Source: Octopus vulgaris (taxonomy: Eukaryota). From it: a stretch of 64,000 bases of DNA. Position 1 is the stretch's first letter; every line of letters begins with the position of its first letter. The DNA lies in contig OX597815.1 in the NCBI GenBank assembly GCA_951406725.2, positions 64,170,001 through 64,234,000 on the forward strand, read 5' to 3'. This document shows positions 8,120 to 63,200 of this stretch, one piece after another. The translations under genes and the position numbers were made by a program. The notes beneath the pieces were generated by a model that searched no databases, was not told where the DNA came from, and saw only the letters and a list, made by a program, of their open reading frames with translations.

Positions 8120-8345
8120 GTGTGTGCATCTGTTTGTCTCTCTGTCCGCCACCACCACCGCTTGACAAATGGCATTGGTATGTTTATGTCCTCATAATTT
8201 ATCGATTCGGCAAAAGAGACCGATAGAATAAGCACCAGGCTTTAAAATAAATATGTACTGGCGTCGATACATTCGACTAAAAGTTTTTCAAGACGATGCC
8301 CCAGCGTGGCCGCAGTCTAATAACTGAAACAAGTAAAAGATAAAA
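8120..8345 (+). mobile_element. SINE family B, 3' half
   Basis: caccgcttgacaa...ttcggcaaaagagaccgatagaataag...ccagcgtggccgcagtctaataactgaaacaagtaaaag. Confidence 0.8.
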
Positions 8346-8365
8346 GGAATACCTTTTACACTGTA

Positions 8366-10979: not shown

Positions 10980-13900
10980 TCTTAAGGTCTACTTCTAGAA
11001 ATTCAGTGTTCTTCCTTTTCCTTGTATATGTGGTTTCGACTTCTTGTAGCGGTGTTGGAACCTGAAAAGTGTTATATAGCCAATCTTTCTACTCTTGTTG
11101 ATTCCTTTTCTATGACTCTTTCCTTAAGCTGATTTCTATATCTCCTTTCCATTCCATTTCTGCTTCTTACGCCATACATCATTCTTCCTGTGTATGTTAC
11201 AATTTTTCCTTTTTCCTAGTATTGCTGACCATTTTTGTACATTCTTACATATACCTTATCACCGATTCTAAAGAATGTTGGCATGTCTGTACTAGCACGT
11301 ATATTTTTCTTCACTGGTATCAGTTAATCATATATTGACTTCACCTTTCTGGCAAACATTAATTCTGCTGGTGAACTTCCTTCTGGCGCATTTGGGTTCG
11401 GAGTTACCCAGTATACCTCTAAGAATTGTTGGATCGCGATCTCATCCGTGGCTTCCTTATTAGCTTTATTTAAGGCTTTCTTAAAAGTGTCCACGAACCG
11501 TTCAGCCTTTCCATTCGATCTAGGATATAAGGTGCTATAGTTTTATATTCTAACGTGATCATCTCGTAGAATCTTTTAAACTCACAGGATACAAACTGAG
11601 TTCCGTTTTCAGGGACAATTATATCCAGTACACCAAATCTTGCGAACAGCTCGTGTAAGAAGTTTATAACCGTATATGAGATTGGTCGTTTACACCTCGA
11701 AACCTCAGGCCATTTTCTGTAGCTGTCCACCCTACCATTTACCGGGCCTGCAAAATCAATATGCAATTGGGACCATAGTATTTTCACTTCCGGCCAAGGT
11801 TCTCATGTTGTAGTACGTAGTTTCGCTGCCAGTGTACATCCTCTGCAGCCTTTTACCAGGCTTTCAACTTCCCTGTCCATGCTTGGCCAGTATACGAAAC
11901 TTCGCATCAGCGCTTTCATTCTAGAAATGCCTGGGTATCCTACATGAAACTCTTTTAGCATTCTCTTCTGTAATGTTTGTGGTATGACCACCCTCTCAGC
12001 GTACATTAGCACACCATCACATAAAGAGTACACGCTCATATCTTGGCAGATATTTGCATTAGACCTTTCTTTATTTCCTTTTGTGGACCACAGTTTTTTT
12101 TGTCTCATTAAAAAATTTGTCATTACTCGCATTTCTTTTTATTTCTTCCAAAGTTACTGGTAGTCCATGTACGATGTTCTACATCCCTTTTTTGTTTCCA
12201 CAAAACGTAATAGCAGCGCTAAGAGCGGATCTTAGCGCTGCTATTACGTTTTCTTCACTGGTTCGTTATTTCTCGGAATTAACCTAGACAGACTATCGGC
12301 ATGCCCCAACATTTTTGAAGGCAGATATTCCATTTTATTATCGTAGTTTAATAGAATGGTACCCCACCATTCTATTAACAAGGCAGAAAGCTGGCACAAT
12401 TGTTAGCAAACAGGGCGAAATGCTTAGCGGTATTTCGTCTGCCGCTACCTTCTGAGTTAAAATTCCGCCGAGGTCGACTTTGCCTTTCATCCTTTCGGGG
12501 TCGATTAAATAAGTACCAATTACGCACTGGGGTCGATATAATCAACTTAATCCGTTTGTCTGTCCTTGTTTGTCCCCTCTGTGTTTGTCCCCTTGTGGGC
12601 AATAAAGAAATAAGAATGGTACCCCCCGCTGCAGTCTGTTTGCCGTATATATTGGGATTCCTTTCTTGGATCCGTATATCATTTTTAGTGGTCTATGGCC
12701 TGTCTGCAACCAAAAACGTCTGCCATGGATGACCTGTGGAACTTTTCACGCCACATATTATAACCAACACCTCTTTTTCAATCTGGCTATAGCTCTTTTC
12801 CACCGGCAATAATGTCCTTGATGAGTGAGCTATGACCTTTCTCCTGCCATCATTATCCTTGTGAAGGAGCACGGCTCCTATCCCATACTCGCTAGCGTCT
12901 GCAGCTAGTATTATCGCTAGCTTTGAGTCGAAACGCATAAGATATAAGTCTGAAGCTAACGCTTCTTTTAACTCGTTAAATGCTTTCTGGCATTTCTCTG
13001 TCAAAACCCATATGGCATTTCTTTTTTATTTTAGTAATTCATTAAGTGGTGCCTTTACCTCATGTATATTTGGGATATATACTTGGTAATAATTTACCAA
13101 GCCTAGGAATGCTTGTAGCTCTGACACATTCGTCGGGGACGGCATATTTCGTATTGCCGTCGCCCTTGATGAGTACAGTCTGCGTCCACTTTCGTCGATT
13201 ACTTGACCTAGGTATTTTATTTTTCTCATCAAAAATTCGCATTTTTCTTCTGTCAATTTTAGTCCGTATTCATTTATTCTGGCTCTTTATCAAAATGTCA
13301 TCGAGGTAAGCGATGGTACGGCTCTGAGAGGTCTAACTTCCAGAACATTTTCCCTCCGTTTAGTATAGCAAATACTTATTCTGTGAGTAAGCAGTTGTTT
13401 AATCCGGCTGAGAAGTCTGCACACACTCTTAGCTTATTATTAATTTGTTTTACGTAGACCGCCGGTGTTGCCCAGTCTGCATTGTCAATCTTTTCAATTA
13501 TATTCAAGCCTTCCGACTTTTCTAGCTCCATTTAGGCCTGAAAATAGGCGTTGAATTTTCTTTGATAGCATTCCTTGCTTTTCATTTTGTGCAGCAGCCT
13601 CAACCTTCCGAAAAAACTTTTGGGAAAGTTTCTTACATTTTATTTATTTATTTATTCATTTATTTATTTTGTCTGTTTATCGACCTCATTCGATCATTTG
13701 ACTGCTCCGTTTGCGTTATTGCACAAAAGGCTTATGTGTGTATCCCATAAATTAAATTTCTCCATACATTCGATGTCAAATAAATTCATAGATTTTTTTC
13801 AATATATAACCAAGTCACTTCTTTAGTTCGACCTTTGAACATTATATTACAAACGCGTTCGCCCGTGAAATATAATTTTCTTCCCCGTAACACCATACTC

Positions 13901-14815
13901 TATTTTATTTGCACTACATAATTTTGGTTTACCTATTTGTCTCCATGTTTTCTCATTTATGATTGTGATATCACTTCCCGGGTCTAATTGCATTCTGACA
14001 CTAGTGGTTTCGATTCTCACATTCACGAATTTTCTGTTTGTTGTAGTCACAACTTTTCCTGCTGACAAGCTATTTATTTTTTCTTGTTTGTTCTATTTTC
14101 CTATCATTCTAGTTTTGCAGTGCGATATGTCCTATATACCCGCATCGAAACTACTTTGCTTTTTTATACGGACGATCTTTTTTGAGGTGCATCCCACCAC
14201 ATGCGATACATGGGTCTACATCTACATATTTTTTTCTGTTTTTCTTGCAACACTTTATTAGTCTTCCGACATTTTTGCACTAGTCTTATGTGAAAACACT
14301 CTTTCCATTGAAATTCTTCCGTGTCATACTTTAATTTTAATATCATGTCACACTCTTCCGACAGTTTCTGCACTGTCAAATCCTCGTTCATTTCCAGTTT
14401 TGCTAGAATTTTCGTTTGGATTTCTGCATCCCTTTTATCACTCAATCCTTGTGCAAAAATCAAACACTTGAAAGAATCCGGAGTAAGCCTAAATATTTCA
14501 CATTCTTTGTTGACTCTGCCTGTGTAAGTAGTGACATCTTCGCTCTTTTCTATGTTTAAGCATTTCCGTCTAGTATTAAACAGTGAGCTCTTTTCATTAA
14601 GCATTTTGCACAGAATGTCAACTGTGTCGATGAAATTTATGTCGGACGCTTTTTCTTTTGGCAATATGAAGTTACAATACTTCTCATGCTCTGCTGTCGC
14701 TAGTTTTCTTATAACTAGACGCGGTTTTATTTCGTCCGTCCAATCCTGACATTCTTTCTCAAAAATTTGTTGACATCTTCGAAACACTCGAAGGTTACTC
14801 CTTAAACATCGATCT
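10980..14815 (-). mobile_element. Decayed Ty3/Gypsy retrotransposon gag-pol (no LTRs seen)
   Basis: Minus-strand order: gag-like (14164-14826), protease 'MQLDPGSDITII' (13847-14068), RT 'KCEFLMRKIKYLGQVI..LQAFLGLVNYY', RNase H 'AADASEYGIGAVL..YSQIEKE', integrase Zn region 'FHVGYPGISRMK..YWP..CRGC', rve 'WSQLHIDFAGP'. PR-RT-RH-INT is the Gypsy order; many frameshifts. Confidence 0.92.
12379..12612 (+). mobile_element. SINE family A inserted in Gypsy pol with a 13-bp TSD
   Basis: agaatggtacccc at 12353-12365 and 12613-12625 flanks a near full-length copy. Confidence 0.9.
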
Positions 14816-15237
14816 ACTTGTTTCAATCATTTGACTGCAGTCATGTTGGAGTACCGCCTTGAAGAGTCTTTGGTGAACAAATCGACTTATTTTTGAAGCC
14901 TTGTACTAATTCTATCGGTCTCTTTTGCCGAACTGCTAAGTTACAGGAAAGTAAACACACCAACACCGGTTGTCAAGCGGTGTTGGGGACAAGCACAGCC
15001 ACGCACACACACACATACACACAAACACACACACATACACGCACACGCACACACAGGCACTGATATACACATACACGACGAGCTTCTCTCAGTTTGCGCT
15101 TATCAGATCGATTGAGAAGGCTTTGGTCACACTGAGGCTATAGCAGGAGATACTTCTTTGCTCAAGGTGCCAGGCAGTGTCACTGAACCCGAAACCATAT
15201 GGTTGGGAAGTAAATTTCTTACTACACGGCAACACCT
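14815..15237 (-). mobile_element. SINE family B, near full length
   Basis: tttcaatcatttgactgcag...ctatcggtctcttttgccgaac...(CA)n...ctcaaggtgccaggcagtgtcactgaacccgaaaccatatggttgg. Confidence 0.85.
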
Positions 15238-20995: not shown

Positions 20996-21245
20996 CGTGT
21001 GTGTGTGTGCGCGTGTGTATGTGTGTGTGTGTGTATTTGTCTATATTTGTTCCCCAACACCGCTTCATAATAATTGTTAGTGTTTACGACCCCCATAACT
21101 TAGCGGGTCAGTAAAACACACTGATAGAATAAGTACTATGTTTGAAATAAATAAGTACTGGGGTCGATTCATTCAACTAAAATTCTTCAAGGTGATGCCC
21201 CTGCATGGTCGTAGTCTCATGTGTGCAACAAGTAAATGCTAAAAG
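20200..21245 (+). mobile_element. SINE family B split at its internal microsatellite by about 560 bp that includes an RTE-like RT fragment (20459-20710, minus)
   Basis: SINE 5' part at 20200-20285 and 3' part at 21040-21245; the insert encodes VLLAEITDELQIRL..VGLEM..NTKY..EIEEGKECVYLGHTVS. Confidence 0.65.
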
Positions 21246-21494: not shown

Positions 21495-22921
21495 ATATGT
21501 TTCAACAAACGACTTCACATTAGGAATCTCGCAAACAAATTTGTAAATGCAATATACATATTCATTTATGTCTATACAAATAAATATATACATACAAAAA
21601 CACATATTACACACATACACTAAGTATTTCAAAAATAATTCAATGCTACAAATATATATTTCTTTTTCTCCTCGTGAGAGTTTGTCAGGCTTTAAAATAA
21701 CATTATCAATTATCCGTATATATATATATAAGGAGAGAGAAAGAGAGTGAAAGAGAGAGTTGTAACAAATATCTAATACTCAAGTAACAATACAAATCCA
21801 AGCTTGAATGTAAGAACGAAGTACTTAGTTGTAAAATAAGATGAGTTCTGTATTATTAAAGGCAAACACTACTCGGCTAATACACACATCGTAAAAGCCT
21901 TGTGAGGTTTCTCAGGTGGAGACGCATCTTAGGTTCAGGTTTTGCAATGTTAAAGTTTTATTGGCCAGTTATAAATGAAGTTTGCCTGTTTTGAAATAAG
22001 ACTTAAAATTTATTGTTTGAAATATATGTGGAGAACGTTTCTTTGGAAGAAAGAAAATAAAAGATTTATAACATATTTTAAATTATATGGAAAGTATGTG
22101 GCTGTAGTAGGTGAATTTTACAAAAACAAAAACAGAACAACTCATTTGGAGGACTTTATTTATGCAAAGATAAAAAAGAAATTGTAATCTATTTTTTAAA
22201 GGATTTCAATATCTGTCACTCAATTTCTATCATATGAACACCCTCATGTTCTCTCTCATTTTTCTCTCTCCCACCCCACCTCTCTCACTGTGTCTTGGAA
22301 ACATAATTCATGCACAGATACACTTTCGTACATAAGTTGACCAAACAAGATGTACCTATGTAGATATGAAAAATCTTTGTTAGATGTATGTATATAGAAA
22401 ACACAGTTTATATGCATAAATTCTGTTGGATGGTCACGGCAAACATTGTGTTTTACTCTAGGTAACAGAGATTTTCAAAAAGTCAAAGCATTGGTTGATG
22501 TGTGGTGAAGATAAGAGAGTACGCTATTAAAAGCATTCCTCTAACTATCAGTATAGTACATTATAGGTTTTAAAGTTTCTGAAAGTTTTCTTTAAGTTAT
22601 GTCCGCAGGAAAAGATTATTTTCCAATGTCTATTTATATGAGTGTTCTTTTCATCAAATATGATTTCGTAGGTGTCTGTAGCGCATAAATTATGCTTTGT
22701 TCCCCTTATATAATCTAGCATTCGTAATTATATTCCATTACATATTTTATAGTTAATTTTTGTTTTACACTTCTCATATAAATGAGAATAATGAGCTGTC
22801 TTTATTTCTAGCTTTGTTACGAAAAAATGTGTGTGTTGGTTATAGCGATGTTTGAATTGATGTTTGAATTGTACATACATACATACATACATACATACAT
22901 ACATACATACATGCGTATGTA

Positions 22922-22965
<44 letters not shown>

Positions 22966-23011
22966 TACACACGCATATACATACATACATACATACATAC
23001 ATGCGTATGTA

Positions 23012-23055
<44 letters not shown>

Positions 23056-23402
23056 TACACACGCATATACGCTTACATATATATAGTGAGTTAGAGTGAG
23101 GAGAGATAGATTAGTTTTTATTGTGCATTGGTATGTTATGTAATTAAGAAGCTTCCCTTTAATGAACATATGGTACTGCTTATGGAGTTGTAGTTACTAT
23201 TGGTTGTATTGATATTTCAATGAGTTTGAAGAATTTTAAAGAAATTTATGTTTACAATGTTTGCTGTGGTAGAATTCATGAATTTGATTATGTTTGTACC
23301 GAATATTTGGCGGTGTTTATAGAGAAAATGGAGGTATTTAGCAAATAAGTTTTGAAAAATATTTGCTATTGTGGTTCTTACTGCAATATTAGAGTGATGT
23401 TT

Positions 23403-23623
23403 AAGGCGGCGAGGTGGTAGAGTCGTTAGCACGCCGGGCAAAATGCTTAGTAGCATTTCAATGTCACTATATTCTGAGTTCAAATTCGGCAAGTCCACTT
23501 TGCCTTTCATCTGGTCGGGGTCGATAAAATAAGTATCATCTGAGCACTGGGGTCGATATAATTGACTTACCCGCCAACAACTGAAATTACTGGAGTCGTG
23601 CCAATAATTTAAAATCAGTATTA
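23403..23623 (+). mobile_element. SINE family A
   Basis: aaggcggcgaggtggtagagtcgttagcacgccgggc...ttgcctttcatctggtcggggtcgataaaataagta. Confidence 0.85.
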
Positions 23624-24481: not shown

Positions 24482-24580
24482 CGCGTGTGTGTGTGTGCGT
24501 GTGTGTATGCGTGTGTGTGTGTGTGTGTGTTAATTGCTGATAATGACAGTGTATTTCATTATGCAGCCATAATATATTAC

Positions 24581-25094
24581 CAAGTATATTAAAGGTTTTA
24601 TATGTCAATAGTGTGTTCTACCGTGATAGCTGTACAAGTCAATCAATTTTTAAAGTCATCTCAACAGATTTTCTAGAACTTCTAGAAATTATAGACAGCA
24701 CTGGAAATTAAGACGTTTCGTACACTAATACGTCCATGCAAACTATGTGATCGAAGATACAGAAACAGGTATTGGGTGTACATCCATATTTCAGGAGTTC
24801 TTGCTCTTACATCAGTACCACATCCAACCCTTTGACCATCTACGAATACATTGTTTAAATAGTCACTAAATTTAGCGGTGTAACACAGTTGGTTATACCA
24901 ATTTTACATATTAAACACATTCCTGGCAAGATGGTAGACCGTAAATATTAATCGCTGGTAGGGGCACTATATTTTGCTATCAAGTATATTAAAGGCTTTA
25001 TAAGTCAATATTGTGTCCTACTGTTTTAGCAGTGCAATTCAGTCACTTTTTAAACTTATCTCTACAGATTTTCAATAGAAATTATAGTCAGCAC
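24581..25094 (-). mobile_element. Partial tandem repeat unit (period 400 bp) with a decayed HHR 3' half
   Basis: 24581-24701 is similar to 24981-25094; GAAACGTC on the minus strand at 24712-24719, adjacent to the repeat. Confidence 0.5.
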
Positions 25095-26867: not shown

Positions 26868-28330
26868 TGTATGTATGTGTGTATGTATGTATGTATGGAT
26901 GGATGGTTGGTTGGATGGATGGATGTATTAAATTAATTTATAGTTTGCATGTTCTTTTACCTCAGTGTTCCTTCATTAAATACCAGTATATACCAATTGA
27001 TCAATATGCACTGATATCATCTGATAAGTTAGTATTTAAGTTTATAATATGTATTAATATTAAACTATTTCTGGATAATTTTCTTTTCCTCCCTCTATTG
27101 TGGTAAAAGTTTGTTATATACTCAAAAGTTTTCATAAAACATTTTATCCTTTTGTTATAATTATTCTTCTTAATAATCCTCTGAATAATCCTAAACTTTA
27201 ACTTTATACAATATGACAATATTGTTTAAAATATTTAACTATAGTTCTACATGATAAGATTTCCCCTGTTTTCATTATCAATGGTCTGCTAGTGGCCAGA
27301 GCCCTTAATTTTCTGCTAACATCTTGATTTAAGTTTTCCTTTACTAAATCTCATGAAATTGCTTCAAATAAGTCTTGATTCTTATGACTATACCCACTAT
27401 GATTTCTGTCGACTCCCTCAGCCCTACCCCTAACAGATTCGGCCTTAGATATACAAGGATTTGATAAAACTAGTCTATAAATTAAAACTGACCCCATATA
27501 ACAGTGATAAGCAAAATCTGTAACAAGTAGTTTCTAAATGTTCTTTGCATGTTCTTTGTCTATCTCCTTAACGTCTTGGAGATTTCAGGCAAAATTATAC
27601 TAATGTGTCCATCTATTTTAATTTAATTAAATTCTGTCTTTGTGCAGCTGAGGATTGCTCTGCATTTAAAGTGATGTAATGGTTGCATTGTTCAATTAAA
27701 TGGAGTTGCGTGAAACGATCGTACTGCATTACCTCTGGATATACTTGTTGCTTATTTTATTCTAATCACCTTATTTTAAATTGTATGGATAATACCGTAC
27801 TAAATTCTGGTACCTCAACTTAAGTACCATATTCATCTGAATCTAAATTTTTGCTGAACTCATATATATATATATATATATATAAAGAACACACACCCAC
27901 GGCTTTATACTTTCCAGAATGAAAACAGACCAACGAACACTGTTATATATACCTACACCCCCCGAAATAATTATACATATGACACTGCTACACATACTAC
28001 ACAAGCCATCCCCACAGGAGCACCGCATTAATAATACTTACTTCTCTGACTTCAAGATAAATGTTGTTGGCTTCACAGCATACCTAATTCCTAAACTAAT
28101 CCTCTGGCCTTTTCTCATTTCACCACCTTTTTCACAGGAGCCGCTGACCCGTTGTGCTAATCCACCTCCGATAATAGAGAACAATTACCATATTCCTTCT
28201 ATATCGGCTTGCTCTGATGAGTGTAAAGTTATATAATCGGTTTGTTGCCTAACACTCCATTGTATTCTTTACGTGAAACAGATTGGTAAGGTCAGCCGTG
28301 ATGGATATTTAATACTATACATTTGGAATA

Positions 28331-28379
<49 letters not shown>

Positions 28380-28674: not shown

Positions 28675-28886
28675 AAGGCGGCGACCTGGCAGAAACCTTA
28701 GCACGCCGGGCGAAATGCTTAACAGTATTTCGTCTGTTTTTACGTTCTGAGTTCAAATTCCTCCGTGGTTGATTTTGTCTTTCATCTTTTCGGGGTTGAT
28801 AAATTAAGTTCCAGTTGCGTACTGGGATCGACCTGATCGACTCACCAAAAATTTCAAGCCTTGTTCCTAAAGTAGAAAAGGATATT
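28675..28886 (+). mobile_element. SINE family A
   Basis: aaggcggcgacctggcagaaaccttagcacgccgggcgaaatgc...tttcatcttttcggggttgataaattaag. Confidence 0.85.
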
Positions 28887-28894
28887 TTAATAAA

Positions 28895-31292: not shown

Positions 31293-32261
31293 GTGACATA
31301 AGCATGTGTGCGACACACACACACACATATACACACGCACAAGCACACACACACACACATATACACACGCACAAGCACACACACACACATTCACATTCAC
31401 GCGCGCGCACTCGTGCGTACACGCACACGTACACACACACGTTCGCATACAAACACACACACACACATACACACATACACTCAGTGCTTGTGCGTGTGGC
31501 ATAGTCATTCTGAATTTTGATCTGCAAGAGACATAACTGCAGATGATGATGATGATGATGACGGTAGTGGTGGTGGTGGGGTATTCTGGTGATGGTAGTG
31601 GGGTAGCAGCCTCTGATGTTGATAATGACGTTTATAAAGGAGTGGTAACAGTATTGTTGTTGTTACTGCTGCTGCTCCTGCTGCCGATGATTATGATGAT
31701 GATGATGATTACAATTAGTGATACTGTATTAATTGGGACGTTGTGTTGCTGTCTTCCATAAAATAAGTTTCTTCTCTAATGAACACCAATATCTTAAGTT
31801 CTTAACAACAGCAAATTTGAGTCATTTAACTACGCGCTCCGTCCATACGTAAAACACATCTTTGCGCTTCTATGTTATATTCCAGCATCGAATATATTTA
31901 TCTCCCTTGATTTACAGTTACCTCCCTTTCAACCAAGAGTAACTGATATTTTTGTTCTTAATTTTAAGCTTATCGATTATTCTCATCTGCTATCGAATCC
32001 CTTATCTATCTGTCAGCCTCTCTAATTTACTTCGTTCTTTATTTCTCTCTCATTCTCTCTAGTATTCCGTCTTTCTCTCCCCCTCTCGCTCCTTCTCCAC
32101 ACTCGTTCTATTTTTGGCACTTTACATGCTTACGCTTATACCTATGTTTGCTTATACCTATGTTTGCATACGTATGTATGCATGTATGTATGTATGTATG
32201 TATGTATGTATATGCTTATATATATGTGTGTATGTGTGTATGTATATATATATTCTTTCCT

Positions 32262-32455
32262 TTTACTTGTTTCAGTCATTTGACCACATTCATGCTGGAG
32301 CACCGTCTGAAAGGGTTTTAGACGAAGAATTCAACTGCAGGACTTTTCTTTGTAAGCCTGTCGGTCTCTTTTGCCGAACCGCTACGTTACGAGGACATAA
32401 AACACCAGCATCGGTTTTCAAGCGATGGCGAAGGGAACAGAAACAGACATACACA
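32262..32455 (-). mobile_element. SINE family B, 3' half
   Basis: ttttacttgtttcagtcatttgacc...catgctggagcaccg...tcggtctcttttgccgaaccgcta. Confidence 0.8.
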
Positions 32456-33639: not shown

Positions 33640-36600
33640 CTTTTTTTTTCTTCTTTCAAATTTGCTTCCATTTCTTGCCGAGTGTCTTCCCGACTCCTAC
33701 GGCAAAGAAACTCATAGTATACAATGGTAGGCCATTAAACCAAACTCAGTAGATCGTTCATTTTTTTTAATTTTTTTTTTTTTTTTTTTTTTTAAAGTTA
33801 AATTAAAATACATGAGCAGCAACAGTTCTCACATCGACAATGCTCTTCTCAATACGTGTGATGTACCAGTTAAGACAATCTTTTGCACTTCTTGCAGGGA
33901 TGGTAAGCCAGGGATCATTCTCATATAATTTTCGGTTCCCTTCTTGATCATTCCTAGTGCTCCTACGATCACTGGTATTGTAACCGCCTTGAGATGCCAC
34001 ATTTTCTCAATTTCAATGAGTAGGTCTTTATATTTTCTGAGCTTGTCAAACTCTTTCGCTGAGATATTATGATCACAGGGGATGCTCATGTCGATCAATA
34101 AACAAACTTTATTATTTTGGTCTTTCACAACAATATCTGGTTTATTGGCCTTGATGGTTCGGTCTGTATGTACTGGAAAGTCCCACAGAATGGTTACATT
34201 TTCTCCTTCAGTTACAGCCTCAGGGTGGTGATTATACCACTTGTCGGCAGTTTTGATATTGTAATGCCGACTTATTAGCCAGTGGAGATATTGGCCAACT
34301 CTGTCATGTCTTAATTTATACTCCACTGGTGCTAAGACTTTACATCCAGAGATTAGGTGGTCCACTGTTTCAATCATGTCGTTACAGAATCGGCATTTTG
34401 GGTCTGCTCCATTTTTCATCACATTGGCCTGGTAGTTCCGGGTTAATAGGCTTTGATCTTGAGCAGCCAGGATGAAACCTTCGCTCTCTGCTTTTAGCCC
34501 TGAGCTCCGTAGCCACTGATGGGTTTGCTTCTGGTCAACATCAGCTTGTTTGCTGCGGGTCACATATTTGCCGTGCAGAGGTTTCTCCTCCCACCTATCA
34601 GCCAATTGCTCGTGCGCTTTTTTCATTGCCATCATTTTCACCTTCTTTGCAACAATAGTTGCCGTACTTCCCTCGGGTTATTCAGTTTGGGTATCCTGCA
34701 CGAGATCAATAGCAAATTTTTTGCTTTCCTTTATGATAGAATGAAGCTTCTTTCGTCTCTCGTGATTTTCCACGAGCTTTAGCATCCAGTCATTCGATAT
34801 TTCGAGATATTTGGCCAGTCCAATTGTGGTTGTTTTGTAAGCTAGTTCAAATTGGATCAGGCCTCGACCTCCTTGGGCTCTGGGAAGGTAAAGGCGATCT
34901 ACGTCTGCCTTTGGGTGGTGCATCCTATTACAACTCAGCAGCTTGCGTATTTTCCTATCTATATTCTTTACTTCACTCATATTCCAGTTCAACACATTGT
35001 AGCTATAAGTAACAACTGGAACTGCTAAGGAATTTATAGCTAACACCTTGTTACGTGCATTTAGTTCAGATTTCAGGACTGCACGAACTCTCCTATAACA
35101 TTCTTTCTTGATTTTCTCTTTCATGCTTGCATGCTGAATACCAGAGCCTTCATTTATCCCTAAATATTTGTATGTTTGTTCTTGCTCAAGCTCTCTTATG
35201 ACTGTGTCAACATCTAACACGACTGAATTTGTGGTCTTCACTTTCCCTTTCTGGAAAGTGGCCTTGGCACACTTCTCAAGTCCAAACTCCATCCCGATGT
35301 CATCGCTGAATGCTTTCACGGTGCACAATAGGCCTTCAAGTTCATTATTGTCTTTACCATAAAGTTTTAAGTCATCCATATAAAATAGGTGGCTTATTTT
35401 TTTATTGGCAATATTATACTCATACCCTGTTCTATTTAATTCACTTGTAAGGGGTATTAGGGCTATGCAGAATATTAAAGGTGAAAGTGAGTCACCTTGA
35501 AAAATTCCACAGTTGATGTTTATATTTTCTGAGGCAAGTACTCCATTAGAGTGGTATAATTGGAGATTCGTATTCCACAACGACATATTGTGCTTCAGGA
35601 AGTTTGAAATCACAGGGGAAATTTTGAAGATGTCCAGCGATCTCAAGATCCATGGATGCGGTATACTGTCGAAGGCCTTTTTGTAGTCAATCCATGCGGT
35701 GCTGAGATTTCTGCGCTTGTTGTGACAGTTCTCAAGGATCATACGATTGATTAGCAGTTGATCTTTGCATCCGTAAGAGCCTCGGCGGCACCCTTTTTGT
35801 TCAATGGGGAAAATATCGTTCTTCTCCATGAATGCATATGTTTTCTCCGCCAGGATAGATGTTAGGATTTTATACGTGGTGGATAGACAGGTTATAGGCC
35901 GATAGTTTTTTGGAAGGTTGGTTTCGTTATTCTTTGGGAGTAGGTAAGTAATGCCACTTGCTAACCATTCAGGTGTTTTCTTTGGGTCTCTCATAATTCC
36001 ATTGAGCAGCTGAACTAGCTTACCGTGTGCGCATGGGAGCGATGCGAGCCAGAAATTCGGCACCCTATCTTTACCGGGGGATTTCCAATTATGGGCCTTC
36101 GTGAGTGCCTTTCTTAGGTTTGCTATTGTGATGTCTTCCCATGCTTGTTGTTGTAAATTTAGGTAGGATCCTTCAGTTTGTATAATCCAGTCTGCATTTA
36201 TGTTGTACGTCTTCTTGTCACTCCAAATCCTTTTCCAAAAGTTTTGAACTTCTTCCATGGGAGGTGGTTCTTTAACGGTTGCTTTCTCCTTCCCTATTTC
36301 TCTGTAGAATTTTTTGGCATTGGATGTGAACAGCTTATTTTGCTTGTAAAACTTGTTTCTCTTCTCAAATCTTCGTATTCTTTGGGCTTTTGCTTGGACT
36401 TTTTGTTTCAGCGTTTCTTTTATGGATATCAGTTCTTCTCTTGGTAAGGATCCAAATTTTCTCTTCATCTTTCTTCCTGTTCTGGATCTTACATCATTTC
36501 CACATATTAGTTCATTTAATATTGATATTTCCCCTCTCATAAATTCAATCTCTTTTTCAATTTTACTTCTCCAGGTTTGATTTCTTCCCAGGTTTTGTTT

Positions 36601-36851
36601 TCTTTGTTTTTTCGGGGGCATACAGCTGGTTTCAATTGCCCTAGCAGAAGCGTAAATAATTTCATTTAACTCAGTAAAATCAGGTTTTAATTCTCGTATT
36701 ATTTCATTTGTTACATAGTTGCCAATTTGGATTTGTTTTTTATTTTGGTTTGTATTTGAGAGTTTATGAAGTGGTTCTCTATCATTCATACTTGTATGTC
36801 TTACAACTTCAAGCGTATTCAGGATTTTCTGCCTCATTTCTGCCATAGACT

Positions 36852-36854
<3 letters not shown>
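33640..36854 (-). mobile_element. R4/Dong-clade RLE non-LTR retrotransposon, probably 5'-truncated, inserted in (TAA)n
   Basis: RT plus CCHC plus RLE ORF, about 190-bp 3' UTR and A-rich end; (TAA)n arrays at both ends (33600-33640 and 36855-36928). Confidence 0.92.
33829..36846 (-). pseudogene. Reverse transcriptase-CCHC-RLE polyprotein (about 1005 codons) broken only by a TAA at 34678-34680
   Basis: Track ORFs 34678-36846 and 33829-34641 share one frame. Motifs: YRPITCL, WIDYKKAFDS, GIFQGDSLSP, YMDDLKLY, YKYLG, GGRGL, CRFC..ETVDHLISGC, RHD, KPDIVV..IDMSIP..KYKDL. Confidence 0.92.
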
Positions 36855-36929: not shown

Positions 36930-37755
36930 GCATTTGCGCAGCTTCTAACGCTGGATATGTGCTACGGTGTCAGCTGTTCACCACCTGTGAACCAAGGTAA
37001 CACCTCATATTTTTCGAGCACCTTCCGGAGTATTTGAGCGTTTCCAAGCAGTGCTGTTTTCTGCAAGTGCTCCACCCTTATTGCAGCCCCTATTTGTTCC
37101 ATGTACTTCTCGAGATGTTTGCCCACTGTTCCCAGGGCTCCGACAATTATTGGTTCTACTACCACCCATTTCATCGACCACACCTGCCTAACCTCCCAAG
37201 CTAACCTGTCATATCTATCGACTTTTCTTTCTTCCTTATTGTATACCTTGTTGTCAGCCGGGCATGCTATAGCTATGATCCAGCATAGTTTGCTTACTTT
37301 CTCAATTAAGACTATGTCCGGCTTCTTATTCCGCCCGTTTAATTTCCACTTAAGGATCAGTCTCAGTCTGCGCAAGTACCTCCACCTTAAATTTTGCTGT
37401 CATTTCTTTCTCATCAATTTATCCATTTCCAATATCTCCAAGTACTTATGGCCAGTCTCTTCTATCTGTTTAATAACCTCCCCCGACGGTATCGATAGCT
37501 CGTCCATACATTTGATTTTGCCTTCCTTCAAGACTAACGCACCACACTTTCTCAGTCCGATCTCCATTCTGATATACTGAAAGTATACAACGTATCAACG
37601 AGGGAACTGACTTAGGCTTCATCTTTACCATCCACGAAGAACAAATGGTTGATTTTCTTTTGGCGGATTTTGAATACATACTCAGCTTTTGCTTTCCTCA
37701 GAATTAGTGTTAGTGGTATCAAGCACAGTACAAAGATCAGTGGTGACAGGCAATC
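36930..37755 (-). mobile_element. Second, older R4/Dong-like family copy, 5'-truncated and internally deleted
   Basis: DCLSPLIFVLCLIPL..INHLFFVD (RT), then RRLRLILKWKLNGRNK fused directly to KPDIVLIEK..IACPAD..PIIVGALG (RLE); bounded by (TAA)n at 36855-36928 and 37756-37813. Confidence 0.85.
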
Positions 37756-38184: not shown

Positions 38185-38620
38185 GAATACCTCGATGCAC
38201 TACCAGTCGGTGACTGTCATGGCTTCTGCTCTTTACTGATTGGAAATGTTATCATGTACGGTCTGTCTTGGTATAAAAGATGGGCTACAGCTGATATTCT
38301 GCTCGATACCACAGATTTGCTTGTCAGTTGTTTGACCTTAATCAGCTGAGCATGTCCATTGATGGTTGACGATATGTGCATCTCTGATCACGAGCAGAAG
38401 TAGTGGAGGAGCATCATAGCAATGTATTGAGAGGGATTATTTAGGGTATGAATAATTAACCTCTGGAAATATGGGTGTTTTGTTCATCCTCAAACAACCT
38501 TTATTCAGGGACCTTTTGAGCGGGATGGGCTACTCGACCTGGAGAAAGTTTTAACTGTGCCCCACCTGCAAAGTTATGCGATATGATATTACCATGTTGT
38601 GCACATATGGTAGGGATGCA
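38185..38620 (+). mobile_element. Copy of the 4848-5323 repeat (longer at 5', truncated at 3')
   Basis: Direct sequence similarity. Confidence 0.8.
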
Positions 38621-41301: not shown

Positions 41302-41527
41302 GGAGTAAACACATAAATGTGAACAAGGTGGAAAAAAGAGTACTCAAATACCATGTGTAGAGTAATATGCTTTATTTTAAGCAGCAGAAAATTCAACAAA
41401 ATCTGTTACTCTGAGTTTCTCGTTGCCGTTCATCAGACAGTTTTTTCTAGCAAAAACTGTCTGATGAACGGCAACGAGAAACTCAGAGTAAATTTTGTTG
41501 AATTTTCTGCTGCTTAAAATAAAGTAT
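41300..41527. mobile_element. (TA)n-flanked foldback with two head-to-head HHR motifs (41403-41440 minus, 41457-41490 plus)
   Basis: ctgt CTGATGA A CG gcaa CG a GAAA CTCAGAG TA acag; arms of about 75 bp. Confidence 0.8.
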
Positions 41528-41591: not shown

Positions 41592-42251
41592 ATTGTCCTG
41601 AACTAATCTGCATTTTTGTTATTTTTTATTTGCCCTGTTCGTTGGCGCTAGTAGTCGTGCTAACTTTCATCGGAAACAATCTTTGTGGCTGAAATCTAGC
41701 AGATCTATTTTTAGTGCTAGAGTCGACCACATAGTGGTTACTCTCTTATATTTATGTATAAAATTTATTGTATTCCTGGTTTTGATGCACTCAGCCACTT
41801 GGTGTTAAATGGATGTACTATTAAATTAGTATCCAATTTTCTCACCCTTATTAGTTGATTGTAATTATACTACATTTAATTTTGGATGTAGTATCCGTTT
41901 CCGTGAATTTTGGCGGGCTGTGGCAGGGGCCCTTGAATTATAACAGCGAATGCAATCGACTGAACCGCACGTGTGTTTATCGTTATGGTAAAATCTAGCG
42001 TGCGGTTGAGTAAATTGTATTCTGGACGGGTTCGGCTGAAGAGCTACAGATATGTTGTGTGAGTAAAATTACATAATTTATTAATAGCGAAACAATTGTC
42101 CTGAACTAATCTGCATTTTTGTTATTTTTATTTGCCCTGTTCGTTTGCGCTAGTAGTCGTGCTAACTTTCATCGGAAACAATTCTTTGTAGCTAAAACCT
42201 AGCGGATCTATTTTTAGCGCTAGAGTCGACCACATAGTGGTTACTCACTTA

Positions 42252-42258
<7 letters not shown>
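41592..42258 (+). mobile_element. Retrozyme- or Penelope-like 503-bp unit present as 1.3 tandem copies
   Basis: 41592-41756 is nearly identical to 42095-42258; flanked by (CA)n and (TA)n; no ORF. Confidence 0.85.
42030..42106 (+). ncRNA. Complete type I hammerhead ribozyme motif, predicted cleavage after 42100
   Basis: gttcgg CTGAAGA GCTA (38-nt loop) TAGC GAAA CAATTG TC ctgaac: 6-bp stem I, all core residues canonical. Confidence 0.85.
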
Positions 42259-44213: not shown

Positions 44214-44430
44214 AAGGCGTCGAGCAGGCAGAATTGTTAGCACGCCGGGCAAAATGCATAGTGACGATCGTCCGTCTTTATGTTCTGAGCTTGAATTCGC
44301 CGAGGTCGATTTTGCCTTTCATCCTTTCGGGGTCGATGCAATAAGTAGTAGCTGAGCCCTGGGGTCGATATAATCGACTTGCCCCCTCCCCTAAATTGCT
44401 GACCTTGTGCACAAAACTTGAAACTAATAT
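44214..44430 (+). mobile_element. SINE family A
   Basis: ggcagaattgttagcacgccgggc...ttgcctttcatcctttcggggtcgat. Confidence 0.85.
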
Positions 44431-44853: not shown

Positions 44854-44878
44854 GTCTGTCTATATATATATATATAAG

Positions 44879-45471
44879 TTAGTGTACATTTATACACAAA
44901 AAGGCAAGCCATTAACAGGTTGCCTAACATACTAGAAAGAACAGTCAAAAATTTCAAACCACATTTTAAGAGCAATTTTGAAGGGAATGAAAAATATTAA
45001 CATTTACCATGTTTTACAGCCGGACCTCAGGTTTCGAAATTTAATTAGCAAATAAAATAATTTGCAAGGCGAAGTTCTCATCAGTGGATACGCAAAAACA
45101 TTAATATATAAATTAGAGACCAAATAACACGCGTATCATGCTTATATATTATAATTTTTCAAATCCACCTTGCAAGCGCAGTTTCAATCGGCAGGGAATA
45201 AATATTCCGATTAAACTTCAGAAATTGCTAAAATCATTTCTTAAATTTATATAGGGTAGAAAAAAATTATAGAAATTCTTTTCTACCAGTGGCCTAGTAT
45301 GTATACAAAGTCAATAGACATATTTTTCATACAAAAATTAGTGTACATTTATACACAAATGGCAAGACATTAACAGGTTGCGTAATATATTAGAAAGAAC
45401 AGTCAAAAAGTCGAAATCACATTTTAAGAGCAATTTCGAAGGGAATGAAAAATGAAAACATTTACCATGTT
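44879..45471 (-). mobile_element. Retrozyme- or Penelope-like 459-bp unit present as 1.3 tandem copies
   Basis: 44879-45013 is similar to 45338-45471; homologous to 3241-3655 (shared ctaggccactggta and atggtaaa..ttttcattcc). Confidence 0.8.
45020..45087 (-). ncRNA. Type I hammerhead ribozyme motif, predicted cleavage between 45023 and 45022
   Basis: Minus strand: cca CTGATGA GAA..gcaaat/atttgc..TTC GAAA CCTGAGG TC cgg. Confidence 0.8.
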
Positions 45472-45557
45472 ATATGAAAAATATGTCTATTGACTTTGTA
45501 AAACATTCTAAATTTTTCCTAACCTATATAATTTTAAGTATTATATATATATGTATA

Positions 45558-45610
<53 letters not shown>

Positions 45611-45616
<6 letters not shown>

Positions 45617-45895
45617 TGTTGTGTCTGGAGAGAGTCATTCTCTTTTGGTGCCTTATAATTTAACATACTCAACAGTAAAATTTCCACTTATTTCTTTTTT
45701 ATTTTTCTAAAATTTTCGTCGTGTCTTGCAACCTTTTCAATAGTCACTGAAAAGAGTCAGTGACAATTGAAAATGTTGCAAGACGCAAAGAAAATTTTAG
45801 AAAAATAAAAAAGGAATTTTGGAAATTTTACCGGTGAGTGTGTTAAATTATAAGGCGCCAAAAGAAGATGACTTTCCCCAGACACAACAGAATAT
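45611..45895. mobile_element. Foldback with ~140-bp arms and two head-to-head U3-A8 HHR motifs
   Basis: Arms 45611-45750 and 45757-45895; minus 45707-45743 reads cta TTGAAAA G GTTGC aagac ACGAC GAAA AT TT tag. Confidence 0.8.
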
Positions 45896-48130: not shown

Positions 48131-48794
48131 ACACGAACAGTGTTTAAAGTTTACTTCAGCTATGTAGGTAAAATTTTATTTAATGTAGTCGTAAAAGATT
48201 GTATCATAATATATAAGCCATCATCATCAGGTTAGATTTTAAACAGTCGACCTGGACATTTGTTGGGCTTGTGTTGCTTTCAAGTTCTACATTCGAATTT
48301 ATAGGGTTGGAAGGCGTGGTCTAGAACACACCTTCTAATCTTTCTATAATCAGCTCCGTATGACTTAAGCTGTCGAGATACAACCATCTCTTCAGTTGTT
48401 AGAAGAAGAGTGAGAGATCTGAGACAAAATCAACGTGGCTTATAGGCATTAGGCCTGTATCACTCAGCTAAGGACACGTGATATTCATGTCGTGAAAGCG
48501 ACACCAGCTATAGTTCTTTTGCTATAGCTATCAACGTTTACAAACTATCTCAGACTTCAGTGAAACACATTTACAACTGGGCGACTTACGTTTAACACAC
48601 TTTAGGATACAATATGATGCATATGGCTTCGCAGTTCTATGTCATTGAATCCAAATACAGAAAAAGATGAAATGAGAAGACCGTCAGCATTTCAATATGA
48701 TATACATGCATACGTATTTGTGGCTGTGTGTGTATGTGTGTGTGTATGTGTGTGTGCGTGTGTGTATGTGTGTTTGTATATATAGAATGTATAT

Positions 48795-49110
48795 CTTTTA
48801 TTTGTTTCGGTTATTTGGCTGCGGCCATGCTGGAGCACTGACTTGAAGAAATTTTAGTCGAGCAAATCAACCAAAGGGTTTATTTTTTAAGATCAGTACT
48901 AATAGTATCGGTCTCTTTGCCGAAGCGTTAGATTACGGGAACACAAACACACGAAACACCGGTTGTCAAGCGGTGGTGGGGAAAAACACATATACAAAGA
49001 CACACAGACACACACACACACGTACTTACTCAAAGACGTACATACATGCATGCATACATACATACACTCACACACACACACATATCTCTCTCTATATATA
49101 CAACGGAATT

Positions 49111-50246: not shown

Positions 50247-50643
50247 CAAGTTGCAGTCATTTGACAGCGGCCATGCTGGAGCACCGCCTTTAGTCGAGCA
50301 AATCGACCCCCAGGATTTATTCTTTGTAAGCCTACTACTTATTCTATCGGTCTCTTTTGCCGAACCTCTAAGTTTCGGGGACGTAAACACACCACCATCG
50401 GTTGTCAAGTGATGTTGGGGGGAAAAAACAGATACACAAACATACACCCGCACATACATATACATATATATATATATACATATATACGACGGTTTTACAG
50501 TTTCCGTCGACCTAATCCACTCACAAGTCTTTGGTCGGCCCGAAGCTATAGTAGACGACACTTGCCCAAGGTAACACGCAGTGGAACTGAACCCGGAACC
50601 ATGTGTTTGATAAGCAAGCTACTTACCACACAGCCACTCCTGC
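48795..50643 (-). mobile_element. Three co-oriented SINE family B copies (48795-49300, 49640-50046, 50251-50643)
   Basis: Each has ctatcggtctcttttgccgaac, an internal (CA)n and a tRNA-like head (minus strand gtggctgtgtggtaagtagcttgc...ggttccgggttcagttcc). Confidence 0.85.
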
Positions 50644-57171: not shown

Positions 57172-57178
<7 letters not shown>

Positions 57179-57356
57179 TTCGTTGCGTCTTGCAACCTTT
57201 TCAATAGTCTTGACTCTGAGAGTCAAGACTATTGAAAAGGTTGCAAGACGCAACGAAAATTTTAGAAAATAAAAATAAGAAATAAGTGGAAATTTTACTG
57301 GTGAGTATGTTAAATAATAAGGCACTAAAAGAGAATGACTCTCCCTAGACACAACA

Positions 57357-57360
<4 letters not shown>
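57172..57360. mobile_element. (TA)n-flanked element with a perfect 46-bp palindrome and an intact U3-A8 HHR motif (57229-57265, +)
   Basis: cta TTGAAAA G GTTGC aagac GCAAC GAAA AT TT tag; arms 57172-57217 and 57219-57264; same family as 45611-45895. Confidence 0.85.
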
Positions 57361-57405: not shown

Positions 57406-57597
57406 GAATCGTTAGCACGCCGGAAGAAATACTTAGCAGCTTTTCGTCTGTCTTTACGTTATGAATTCAAATTCCGCCGAGTACGACATTGCCTTCCATC
57501 CTTTCGAGATCGATAAATTAAGTACCAGTGCTTCACTGGGATCAATGTAACTGACGAGCCTCCAATTTCAGACCTTTTGCCTTTAGTAGAAAGTATA
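57406..57597 (+). mobile_element. SINE family A
   Basis: gaatcgttagcacgccgg...gccttccatcctttcgagatcgataaattaagtaccagt. Confidence 0.8.
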
Positions 57598-57929
57598 TAT
57601 TTTGAGACCTTCTGTGACGGTTTTCCATCCGTTTGTGCACTCACTATACGTTTTTCCGTTCGTCTGAGCACTTATCATTCGCTTTTTACTTTTAGTTTGT
57701 GCCCAAAAGTAGTCTTGTTCCGCCTTGGTAGCATCTTGAAGTCTATATTCCTGAACTAAAATTTAATAAACATATTTGACATTCAATTACTTTGCATTGG
57801 GCCCTTAACTCTTCATGGAGTCGTAGGGGCGCCGTCATGACGGACTTTGAACACACAGCCTCAGCGCCTGAATGGTTACCACAAAGCAATCAATTCGACG
57901 CTCTAACGACTTTGCCAGTTTGCAGTGTG

Positions 57930-58700: not shown

Positions 58701-60159
58701 CTGCTGCTGACTCTCTCATTTTGTTGTAAAAGCTTTCTCCATCGTTCCATATGTTTTTCGAATGTGAGGAAACTGATTTTCAGTCTGACTATTATTCAAT
58801 GAAGTGCATTCATTGATCCTTTTGGAATGTCTACCACGTACCGAGGTGATAAAATAAGGTCAGTTTATTTTCTGTTTTTTTTTTTAATATTTCTATTTCC
58901 TGTTTATTACATCGTTTAACTCCAAGACAAAAATAACTTCATGTTATATTGGAACCGCACCGATAAACTGCATTGAATAAAGCGACACACTTGAATACAC
59001 AAATAATCGCAACAAAGTTTTTGAAAATTACTATTTCAAGAAGAAAAGTAGCAAAACTAACTACACAATTAACAGCAACATCAATAATAATAAACATAGT
59101 TTGTCAAACGAAAGTTCGCAAACACTAACCACATCCCATATTCTGCAAGTGAACTTTCTAATAAGCAAACTTTGGATATGTAACACTTTCCTGAAAGCAC
59201 CAAAGCATGGCAGGATTTGGTTCGCAGGTCAAGCGCCTCTCTGCTTGACATTATCAAATAGTCATGCAAGAGGATGTGTGTATCTGTGCCTTGCCAAAGC
59301 CATAAAGTTTTCCTTTTTTTCATCCAAGGAAGACCTGGAGAACGCCCTGGCAAACATGTTAAGAAAATTTTACTTATTTGGAGTGAACGTGGGTGTATGG
59401 TTCTATATAAACCATCTTCAAAACCACAAAAGTCAAAAACGTATGAAGAACAGCAGCCAGTAACCTAGAGGAATACTAAGGTCACAATCAAAGCAATGGT
59501 GAGAGCATTAACCTTGGAGCGTGGTAATTCTGTATCACAATATGAGTAGGTGGTCAGGTGTGACGTAAATTTCATCGATGTGTAGATGCGGAGGTATAAG
59601 GCCACATGACTCGGTAGTACTACAAAATTGTACCAGAATTTTCCTCTGTAAAGGGTACTGAGAGAAAGGCCTTAAAACTCGACTTCAAGGGCAGGTAACT
59701 CAGCTGCTGCATGTGTGGCAGTAAAAGTCATTCAAGTGCTTTACCACCCAACATCTTAAAATAACAAACGGAACGTTGCTGGTTTTGGAGTAGATATCGC
59801 AACGCCAGACAGCTCACGGTCCAGCTCTGGCGCTGTCAGATTTAGCCATTCCTCATTACCAGGAGATAAACAAGAGATTCAAGTACTGCTTTTCAGTTAC
59901 AGTCAACGAAGACATTGAGAGCCATTCAAAACATAAACAACAACCGGAAGTGGTTAATGGAGGCGTTGACATCGGGGATGATAGCTCTGACTTTTTAAGG
60001 CCTTCACAGCAGTAGATTACATTCTTCCATTATGTCTGAAAATAAATGCTTATTTTCAGACATAATGGAAGAATGTAATCTAGCGTAATCTCAATTTGTT
60101 ATAAGGGAGGTCACATTGGTTTTTGTTTTATGCATGAACTGTTGCTTTGATGATTTCTT

Positions 60160-60392
60160 ATTTTTTTACTGCCCACAAGGGGCTAAACATAGAGGGGACA
60201 AACAAAGACGGACAAAGGGATTAAGTCGATTACATCGACCCCAGTGCGTAACTGGTACTTAATTTATTTACCCCGAAAGGATGAAAGGCAAAGTCAACCT
60301 CGGCGGAATTTGAACTCAGAACGTAACGGCAGACGAAATACGGCTACGCATTTCGCCCGGCGTGCTAATGTTTCTGCCAGCTCGCCGCCTTA
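60160..60392 (-). mobile_element. SINE family A, young full-length copy
   Basis: Minus strand aaggcggcgagctggcagaaacattagcacgccgggcgaaatg...ccccttgtgggcagtaaaaaaataag; same tail as the 12379 copy. Confidence 0.9.
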
Positions 60393-60990
60393 ATGCTTTG
60401 ATGATTTCTACGAAGCATTGATATAAACCACTTAATGACACTTTCGAAGAGGAATTAAAGTTCGAAACATGACATCTATACTATAATGGAGAAAGCTACT
60501 TATTAATTAGGCATGTAACAATTTATAATAGTATTAAAAGAAAGCAATTATTAAAGGGCTGACCGTCTGGAAATATTTTTATAAATTTGTATTCTAAAAA
60601 TTTCCTATAATTTCGATTTCTCAAATGTTTTAACTCCAATTTCTCGCAAATTTAAATATTCATCGCATTCATTGCGGAGTATTCCATTTTCATTTGCAAA
60701 GTCTCTCACTTACCCTTTGAGTTTTAATTAGCTATTTGGAAAAACCGACAGTTTATTCTATTAATGTATACGAATGTAAAAACATTCATTGAATCAATTT
60801 TTTTTTCAAATACTTGTATAATTTTTGATAGCTTGTGAGAAGAGCCTAGAAAGTTGAGTAATTACTATTATAAGACGAGGAGAAAAAGTTACCAACAAGT
60901 ACTCGAAACTTGCACCTTATTCACAGTTTCCAAACACTCTGTACCAAGCCAATACATACACAAACAAGTTGCACGAGCGATTTTAACAGT

Positions 60991-62626: not shown

Positions 62627-63100
62627 AAGCTTACAGATGGACTGCTGAACTGAAATCTCTATGTTGCTTTGAGGGGAAGGTAAACTTGACAAACTGCTTC
62701 CTCTTTGTTGTTGGACTACGGTTATGTTTGTTTAAAAAAAGAGAGATTGTGACTGTGTTAAAATAATGAAAGTAATATTTACCTAAGAAAGTGAGCACTT
62801 TTATACAAAGAATTAAGTATACGTAATATATAAAAATTATTAGAATTGAGAATCAAATGTGAAAATATTATCAAGGGACCAGCAAAAAAACCGCCCGGCG
62901 GGCAGTCTTTCTGCTACTATAGATTAATAGTGCTAAAGTCATGAATAGATTAAGAGTGGGGAAATAATAATAGCACAACGAGAAACTGGCGCTATGGTTT
63001 CAATTCCATTCCAGCTGTGGAAAACTACTTTTAATTACATAATTCTTATTGAAAAAATATATATAATGTATACTCATCCGTTGAAAATAATATATGTTTG

Positions 63101-63200
63101 NNNNNNNNNNNNNNNNNNNNNNNNNNNNNNNNNNNNNNNNNNNNNNNNNNNNNNNNNNNNNNNNNNNNNNNNNNNNNNNNNNNNNNNNNNNNNNNNNNNN
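63101..63200. other. Assembly gap (100 N)
   Basis: Run of n. Confidence 1.

Follow-up and report, generated by a model that had tools for sequence, protein, structure and literature searches.

A 64,000-nt stretch of the Octopus vulgaris genome (contig OX597815.1, positions 64,170,001 to 64,234,000; here called the window) holds, on its minus strand at 44879-45471, a sequence that a first-pass annotation described as 1.3 copies of a 459-bp unit, with the upstream partial copy starting 9 nt past the predicted cleavage site of a hammerhead ribozyme (HHR). The same annotation saw this layout in a second unit of 503 bp, found no similarity between the two sequences, and proposed that a replication mechanism is shared across families. 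The locus raises the question of what kind of element this is, how it came to be inserted, and whether the ribozyme sets its 5′ end.

Extent and architecture of the element

We found that the element spans 44876-45540, between two (TA)n tracts. One tract (44861-44875) flanks the end of the long arm and is followed by (GATA)n and other microsatellites, and the other (45542-45614) flanks the tail end; with (TA)n on both flanks, a target-site duplication is not delimitable inside the TA repeats. The direct repeat, 45329-45474 against 44870-45016, covers 147 nt at 88% identity, and base-by-base alignment gives the repeated segment, which we call A, clean boundaries at 45471-45335 for the upstream copy and 45013-44876 for the downstream copy (123 matches, 14 mismatches and 1 gap), with a period that changes from 458 at the 5′ end to 459 at the 3′ end. 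Position 45471 is equivalent to 45013, with a junction ambiguity of 2-5 nt, and the start of the upstream copy lies 9 nt beyond the position that corresponds to the scissile bond (± 2-5 nt of microhomology). The downstream copy, 137 nt long, has its 3′ end (equivalent to 45335) after a small hairpin, at what may be an internal RT start site (site 1).

Between the two copies of A lie, in minus-strand order, segment B or "tail" (45240-45334, about 95 nt), with a 14-bp hairpin at 45287-45255 and a 3′ end at about 45240-45250 that may be a second RT start site (site 2); segment C (45092-45239), a single-copy non-coding spacer upstream of the HHR; and the HHR itself. Beyond the upstream A copy there is a further piece of 70 nt that had been missed: on the plus strand, 45471-45540 repeats segment B (45334-45240) in inverted orientation, with 63 of 70 aligned letters matching and about 26 nt deleted. 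The inner boundary of this piece (equivalent to 45334-45331) abuts the stop of the downstream A copy (equivalent to 45335) within 0-4 nt, and we estimate the rough chance of such an abutment at 0.02. Read along the plus strand, the locus accordingly has a (TA)n tract, the inverted block [A B C HHR A], then B and a second (TA)n tract. The inverted B continues the far end of the element rather than mirroring the sequence adjacent to it, and its junction consists of 2-5 nt of TA microhomology; TA-like microhomology is present both at the target end and at this inversion junction. Divergence is alike between the two A copies (14/137) and between inverted B and B (7/70), about 10% each, as expected of one old event. 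The element is about a 1.5-mer, with its last ~95 nt flipped to the other end, rather than a 1.3-mer, and 44879 is not its only 3′ end, since a second end lies ~95 nt further on, in the flipped tail.

The longest stop-free stretch of the unit in any frame is 45 aa; the unit is non-coding, and a coding function was rejected on this ground. Compared with shuffled sequences, better folding was found for the region of the A end and B (z -3.74, none of 200 shuffles as good), for segment B in a further test (z -3.46, 1 of 200) and for the whole unit (z -3.27, 0 of 100). Two-sequence consensus folds contained zero compensatory pairs.

The hammerhead ribozyme of the unit

The predicted type I HHR occupies 45016-45091 on the minus strand and is composed of stem I (45091-45085 / 45022-45016), the core (45084-45078), stem II (45077-45075 / 45038-45036), a loop II containing a 6-bp hairpin (45065-45048), the GAAA (45035-45032) and a short stem III (45031-45025). 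The core motifs CUGANGA, GAAA and UH are present in type I order, with the predicted cut after GTC at 45023 (45023/45022). A strict hammerhead descriptor found 2 motifs in the window, while 2 of 200 shuffled windows gave 1 motif. The repeat, its 458/459-bp period, the core, the scissile site and the +9 start of the first-pass annotation are all real.

The description of this HHR as canonical holds for the core but not for the stems. Stem I pairs at 5 of 7 positions, with an A-C mismatch beside the cut, and stem II has 3 bp; three stem pairs are broken in this copy (at 45085, 45088 and 45039), with the core intact. The forced HHR fold has -2.7 kcal/mol versus -10.3 kcal/mol for the best fold (a gap of 7.6 kcal/mol), and free folding of the HHR region was no better than that of shuffles. 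Rfam gave zero matches at gathering in the window, and at E<=10 four chance matches, none of them a hammerhead; the long loop II may explain why Rfam misses the hammerhead.

In other copies of the family, with variants not phased, the pairing letter is present in 42-65% of the summed depth at 45085, in 28-54% at 45088 and in 71-82% at 45039, where it gives a fourth stem II pair. A minority of other copies (7-15%) change 45022 instead, likewise closing the first stem I pair. None of the 40 difference rows between the unit and other copies (the best 40 of 164) falls in the HHR core. Stem III exists in the family as two 7-nt forms and one palindromic 6-nt form, and with these three variants we dropped the reading of stem III of this copy as an insertion. 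Judging from these comparisons, the family ribozyme looks conserved and this copy decayed, and the ribozyme of this copy is probably dead.

Copies of the family in other sequencing runs

A run search for the stretch showed that 20 of the 24 runs listed contain part of it, with five organism labels among them and no run exceeding 0.20 of its words. None of the listed runs that contain part of it is an RNA run, which does not bear on expression, and the exact locus is absent from the runs listed. Four of the 24 runs were aligned to one unit (44945-45403) at 80% likeness. Contigs matching the unit numbered 872, 1154 and 1002 in three runs with three organism labels, summed depths not being taken as copy numbers, and one RNA run (6% of it) yielded 75 family-like reads in both orientations. 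This is a high-copy family. Pattern scans gave 0 hits in viral contigs and 2 in metagenome contigs, the latter matching just the 21-22 letters of the pattern and so attributable to chance.

These copies bear on another explanation of the locus, a local 137-bp tandem duplication followed by an unrelated later inversion in an unstable microsatellite field; a local duplication was what the first-pass annotation had named as the case against its own reading. Microsatellites and palindromes do abound in the region, a (TA)n tract is identical to its reverse complement, and no single other record spans both repeats. A local duplication, however, predicts one junction that is unique to the locus, and we found the junctions of the unit in other copies. 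Among 24 pieces of 3127, HHR-A is bridged by 6 pieces and B-C by 3 pieces with at least 31 letters on each side, with two more marginal; C-HHR is likewise bridged. Outside the locus, the A-B junction is seen in the copy at 3243-3660 of the window and, in 21 contigs and 6 RNA reads, as a common loose end at 45320 that extends into the last part of A; strand-change joints also recur elsewhere. No piece among the 24 of 3127 covers the whole unit, so redundancy in single other copies is seen piecewise only, and 45361-45403 is thinly covered, in one run almost not at all. Because the unit closes on itself outside the locus, an origin by local duplication is very improbable and already largely refuted.

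Joints with a change of strand make up 8 of the 15 listed (15 of 40). Four of these have one side at 45329, 45329, 45331 and 45346, each in one contig of one run, with partners at 45113, 45253, 45245 and 45267, three of which lie at the B/C border. These joints run toward B, as judged from a shorter side of 39-58 letters and a depth in that run of 2.05 at 45361-45376 and of 0 at higher positions. For the remaining four strand-change joints a fit to the tail pattern is not clear. Joints are known here from coordinates alone, and indels near 45320-45333, which often break alignments, may fake a common boundary. With this proviso, the same inverted tail seems to be present in several other copies. 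Truncation at points other than the cut site is seen in other copies of the family. None of the joints listed (15 of 40) has a side near 45013-45022, and the 75 reads of the RNA run show no pile-up of ends.

Related and unrelated hammerheads in the window

A relative from a diverged subfamily lies at 3243-3660 on the plus strand (local score with the 459-nt unit 81, with 0 of 200 shuffles as high). It comprises part of C, an HHR (core at 3375, cut after 3433, palindromic stem III), A and B, with HHR-A-B in a row, ends after the same 3′ hairpin of B, and has (TA)n on both sides. It is preceded by an inverted piece, 3243-3302 (equivalent to 3567-3508, 56/60), which overlaps the body rather than abutting it. 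A 77-nt segment is repeated at 97% on the two flanks of this relative (3151-3227 and 3672-3748), like an unusually long target duplication, and a third, inverted copy of it is present at 2900-2970; read on its reverse strand, the segment looks by eye like the 3′ half of a further hammerhead.

The 503-bp unit (41592-42253, plus strand) has its partial tandem at 41592-41750 and 42095-42252 (7 mismatches in 157) and its HHR core at 42036. The absence of similarity to the 459-nt unit was confirmed (local score 22 against a shuffle mean of 24.1, with 170 of 200 shuffles as high). The upstream copy of the 503-bp unit starts 6 nt before the scissile bond (41592 = 42095; cut after 42100), and no convincing inverted piece was found beside it. 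An AT-rich 20/25 match to its left was set aside as low-complexity sequence. In both partial tandems of the window the start lies no more than 10 nt from the cut (+9 and -6), for which the rough joint chance is 0.002, calculated post hoc.

Two more type I hammerheads of unrelated sequence, with a long loop II and each ending at (TA)n, were observed on the plus strand at 27648-27862 and 28214-28335. In the former, stem I has 6 bp, stem III is palindromic and the end lies 139 nt after the cut, a distance close to the 147 nt of the 459-nt unit and the 153 nt of the 503-bp unit. The palindromic 6-nt stem III is found in three hammerheads of the window other than that of the 459-nt unit, those at 3375, 27648 and 42036, and this short palindromic form is said to work as dimers (PMC4209133). 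A near-perfect palindrome of 155 bp (95%) at 41370-41524, missed by the descriptor scans, has by eye a minimal hammerhead-like core on each arm, at 41461, and looks like the head-to-head end of a Penelope-like element (PLE). A 93-nt direct repeat (83%) at 24578-24670 and 24978-25070, with 400-bp spacing, resembles a partial tandem; no hammerhead and no similarity to the 459-nt unit were found in it.

Comparison with known elements

The unit is non-coding and low in GC, carries a type I HHR and exists in many copies, which are the features of metazoan non-LTR retrozymes as given in the accessible text of PMC7229834 and bioRxiv 10.64898/2026.07.22.740005: a non-coding unit of a few hundred bp with low GC and a type I HHR, high copy number, head-to-tail junctions and structured RNA. 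The size quoted there is 150-450 bp, with the 459 nt of our unit at the upper edge. This locus has one HHR, and the head-to-tail junctions of the family are seen piecewise. The rule of Li et al. for active retrozymes (bioRxiv 10.64898/2026.07.22.740005) is two or more HHRs, and with its one, decayed HHR this copy counts by that rule as a derivative rather than an "active" retrozyme. The same two papers report derivatives that are dispersed monomers. An inverted tail and two fixed 3′ ends, as in the element here, are not described in the accessible text of either.

According to PMC8557442, PLE insertions are partial tandems, often with an inverted 5′-truncated copy at the 5′ end; they carry a tail of 30-40 bp at one end or the other, have (TA)n as their target and include derivatives that are non-autonomous. 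The same layout is shown in PMC3846280. The element here likewise has a partial tandem (the pseudo-LTR, or pLTR) with an adjacent inverted 5′ piece that corresponds to a tail, and an AT-rich/microsatellite target, (TA)n both at this locus and at 3243-3660. EN+ PLEs such as Penelope/Poseidon, Neptune and Nematis (PMC8557442, PMC3846280, PMC4209133, as far as these texts go) are alike: their partial tandem forms a pseudo-LTR, the 5′ end bears an inverted piece, a tail is optional at either end, targets are AT-rich/(TA)n, and the HHR has a short, often palindromic helix III. In contrast to them, the element here is without an RT or GIY-YIG ORF, its tail measures ~95 nt rather than 30-40, and its HHR lies just outside the repeated part of the DNA. 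No RT-GIY-YIG ORF, as an autonomous PLE would have, was found within the element.

Three further systems compare in part. PAc, a Poseidon element of Anolis, is reported (PMC11167929, in the portion available) to have two internal RT starts that bound a tail and lie beside stem-loops, to extend both target strands, and to use an AT-rich target; PAc differs in being autonomous, in its AC-rich start sites with no need of target homology, in an HHR cleavage that is dispensable in vitro, and in having no RNA ends at the cut site. In 5′-inverted L1 insertions (available text of PMC2912911), the inverted segment and the direct one are contiguous on the template, and microhomology is found at the 5′ junction and at the inversion junction; the element here differs in lacking a poly(A) tail or definable target-site duplication, in having terminal redundancy and an HHR, and in an internal site that may be fixed rather than opportunistic. 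Chlamys elements, e.g. MRC1 (PMC8557442, likewise in part), are non-autonomous, non-coding PLE derivatives that form pLTRs and head-to-tail insertions, but they are algal, Naiad/Chlamys are without canonical HHRs, and their autonomous partners are known.

A SINE or LINE tail was rejected, there being no poly(A) and a terminal redundancy, and a MITE was rejected because the inverted piece does not form a terminal inverted repeat with the far end. By its structure and target, the element appears to be a decayed member of the known non-autonomous PLE/retrozyme kind. We hold this class with higher confidence than the whole explanation given below. The family is probably undescribed. A literature search on octopus Penelope hammerheads (listings) returned no paper on this 459-nt family, and the supplements of bioRxiv 10.64898/2026.07.22.740005 may list related families.

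Probable insertion by twin priming

We consider it likely that the locus is an old insertion of a non-autonomous PLE/non-LTR retrozyme, made by a PLE protein acting in trans through twin priming at two sites. Under this model, the protein would nick the (TA)n tract, and both DNA ends would serve as primers on one RNA of more than unit length (A B C HHR A B). One end would prime after the 3′ hairpin of B and copy just the 95-nt tail; the other would prime at the A/B border and extend through A, an HHR left uncut, C, B and A again, stopping ~9 nt short of the upstream cut site, which is probably the 5′ end of the RNA. The two cDNAs would then join head to head over 2-5 nt of microhomology, and the copy would later decay by ~10% between its repeats.

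Twin priming is defined in PMC2912911, with microhomologies at its junctions, and it is suggested here by abutting inverted and direct segments: the inverted piece starts 0-4 nt from the stop of the downstream repeat, with TA-like microhomology, and the A/A and inverted-B/B divergences are alike. The model is further favoured by the strand-change joints in other copies, four of them with a side at 45329-45346, by the relative at 3243-3660 with the same 3′ hairpin and a 5′ inverted piece, and by what the accessible text of PMC8557442 and PMC3846280 says of PLEs, in which a partial tandem goes with an inverted copy at the 5′ end, a tail at one end or the other and (TA)n as target. Priming at two sites is consistent with the purified PLE protein of PMC11167929, reported to extend both target strands from two start sites that bound a tail, and the use of a PLE protein by retrozymes with the report (bioRxiv 10.64898/2026.07.22.740005) that retrozymes are tied to pLTRs and share sequence with those of PLEs.

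Several observations count against this model. The tail is ~95 nt against the 30-40 bp reported, the inverted piece of the copy at 3243-3660 overlaps instead of abutting, and RT start in PMC11167929, as far as its text is available, proceeds without target homology, unlike our reading of the microhomology. No autonomous PLE with the same end was found in the window, moreover, and the RT remnant there looks like a LINE of another class.

The overlap at 3243-3302 would be more in line with self-priming or fold-back on an antisense template as the source of the inverted piece, the proposal made for Adineta Penelope, or with a 5′-end template jump; PMC3846280, in its available part, attributes head-to-head inverted pLTRs to self-priming. 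That model rests on long junction palindromes, whereas the junction here has just 2-5 nt of TA microhomology and the inverted piece continues the far end rather than mirroring its neighbour, and we regard this origin as quite improbable.

A second alternative differs from twin priming on a multimeric RNA in the template alone. Copying of circular RNA to more than unit length by PLE proteins is proposed in PMC4209133 and PMC7229834 (accessible text), and the same class of element might have been copied from a circular monomer RNA (retrozyme circRNA), with the RT going through more than one round and its stop near the cut due to chance or to a structural stall. The unit closes on itself across the family and folds better than shuffles, as noted above, and three of the four tail-type joints have partners (45245, 45253, 45267) that make tail plus body approximately one unit, the sum predicted for two primers on a circle. 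A tandem linear RNA would yield identical junctions, however, and a circle has no 5′ end, yet both partial tandems start less than 10 nt from the cut. A circular template at this locus thus seems to us unlikely, though less so than fold-back.

Returning to twin priming on a linear RNA, the +9 start fits the 5′ end of a cleaved RNA. The -6 start of the 503-bp unit cannot be a plain cleavage end and needs an added step, e.g. a jump across the nick, and this start counts, together with the lack of an end pile-up among the 75 RNA reads, against a 5′ stop at the cut. The ribozyme-anchored 5′ end of the first-pass annotation was not borne out, given the -6 start, the truncation of other copies elsewhere, the RNA reads and the dispensable cleavage in the one PLE assayed in vitro (PMC11167929); anchoring by the ribozyme is suggestive only. 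Its proposal of a mechanism common to families is right in outline, in that unrelated families here share the PLE-type layout, which is already published for PLEs and retrozymes (PMC8557442, PMC3846280, PMC4209133, PMC7229834).

More tentatively, retrozyme RNAs may be integrated by PLE proteins through a programmed twin priming at two fixed, hairpin-marked start sites, a generalization that we hold possible but doubtful. If true, the PLE "tail" would be a short second cDNA, flipped at the 5′ end; an inverted tail plus body of exactly one unit would derive from a circular template, and 1.5 units ending at the cut site from a cleaved linear multimer. One high-copy family would then let circular and linear templates be counted and the in vivo role of the ribozyme be tested. 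The origin of the PLE tail and of inverted pLTRs, the HHR's function, and whether retrozymes use PLE proteins and circular templates are treated as open in the available text of PMC8557442, PMC11167929, PMC7229834 and the 2026 preprint. With a short, high-copy family that has two apparent start sites, such questions are testable by junction counts in one assembly. The points to retain from this locus are how exactly the flipped tail fits and a hint of its recurrence at fixed sites. A literature search of titles and abstract starts, with few subscription journals covered, found no paper on a twin-priming mechanism for Penelope; the twin-priming reading of the PLE tail may already be in print.

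Other features of the window

The window is AT-rich and full of microsatellites. A nearly intact LINE-type retrotransposon lies between (ATT)n tracts at 33829-36852 on the minus strand. It has two frames in one phase separated by a single stop, a 724-aa one for the RT (Pfam RVT_1, E 2.7e-29) and one of 282 aa; it may resemble R4/Dong elements with a restriction-like endonuclease. A second, decayed LINE piece is present at 36962-37399. A decayed stretch at ~6790-7830 (plus strand) by eye resembles the remnant of a Tc1/mariner transposase, and a chance match to the hammerhead core falls inside it, at 7258.

A dispersed repeat pair (4852-5223 and 38264-38620) is 85% identical over 372 bp. An exact 90-bp duplication within microsatellites at 22887-23070 is possibly an assembly artefact, and a scaffold gap of 100 N lies at ~63100-63200. 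An abundant SINE-like family of ~170-240 bp is found at 5481-5674, 12380-12616, 23401-23572, 28675-28888, 44214-44430, 57406-57601 and 60155-60394, among others, and a second family at 8149-8346, 14812-14992, 21054-21245, 32260-32455, 48792-48985 and 50250-50438. Finally, a palindromic MITE-like element at 45611-45895 adjoins the 1.5-mer across the (TA)n tract, and has a second copy 11 kb away, at 57174-57357.
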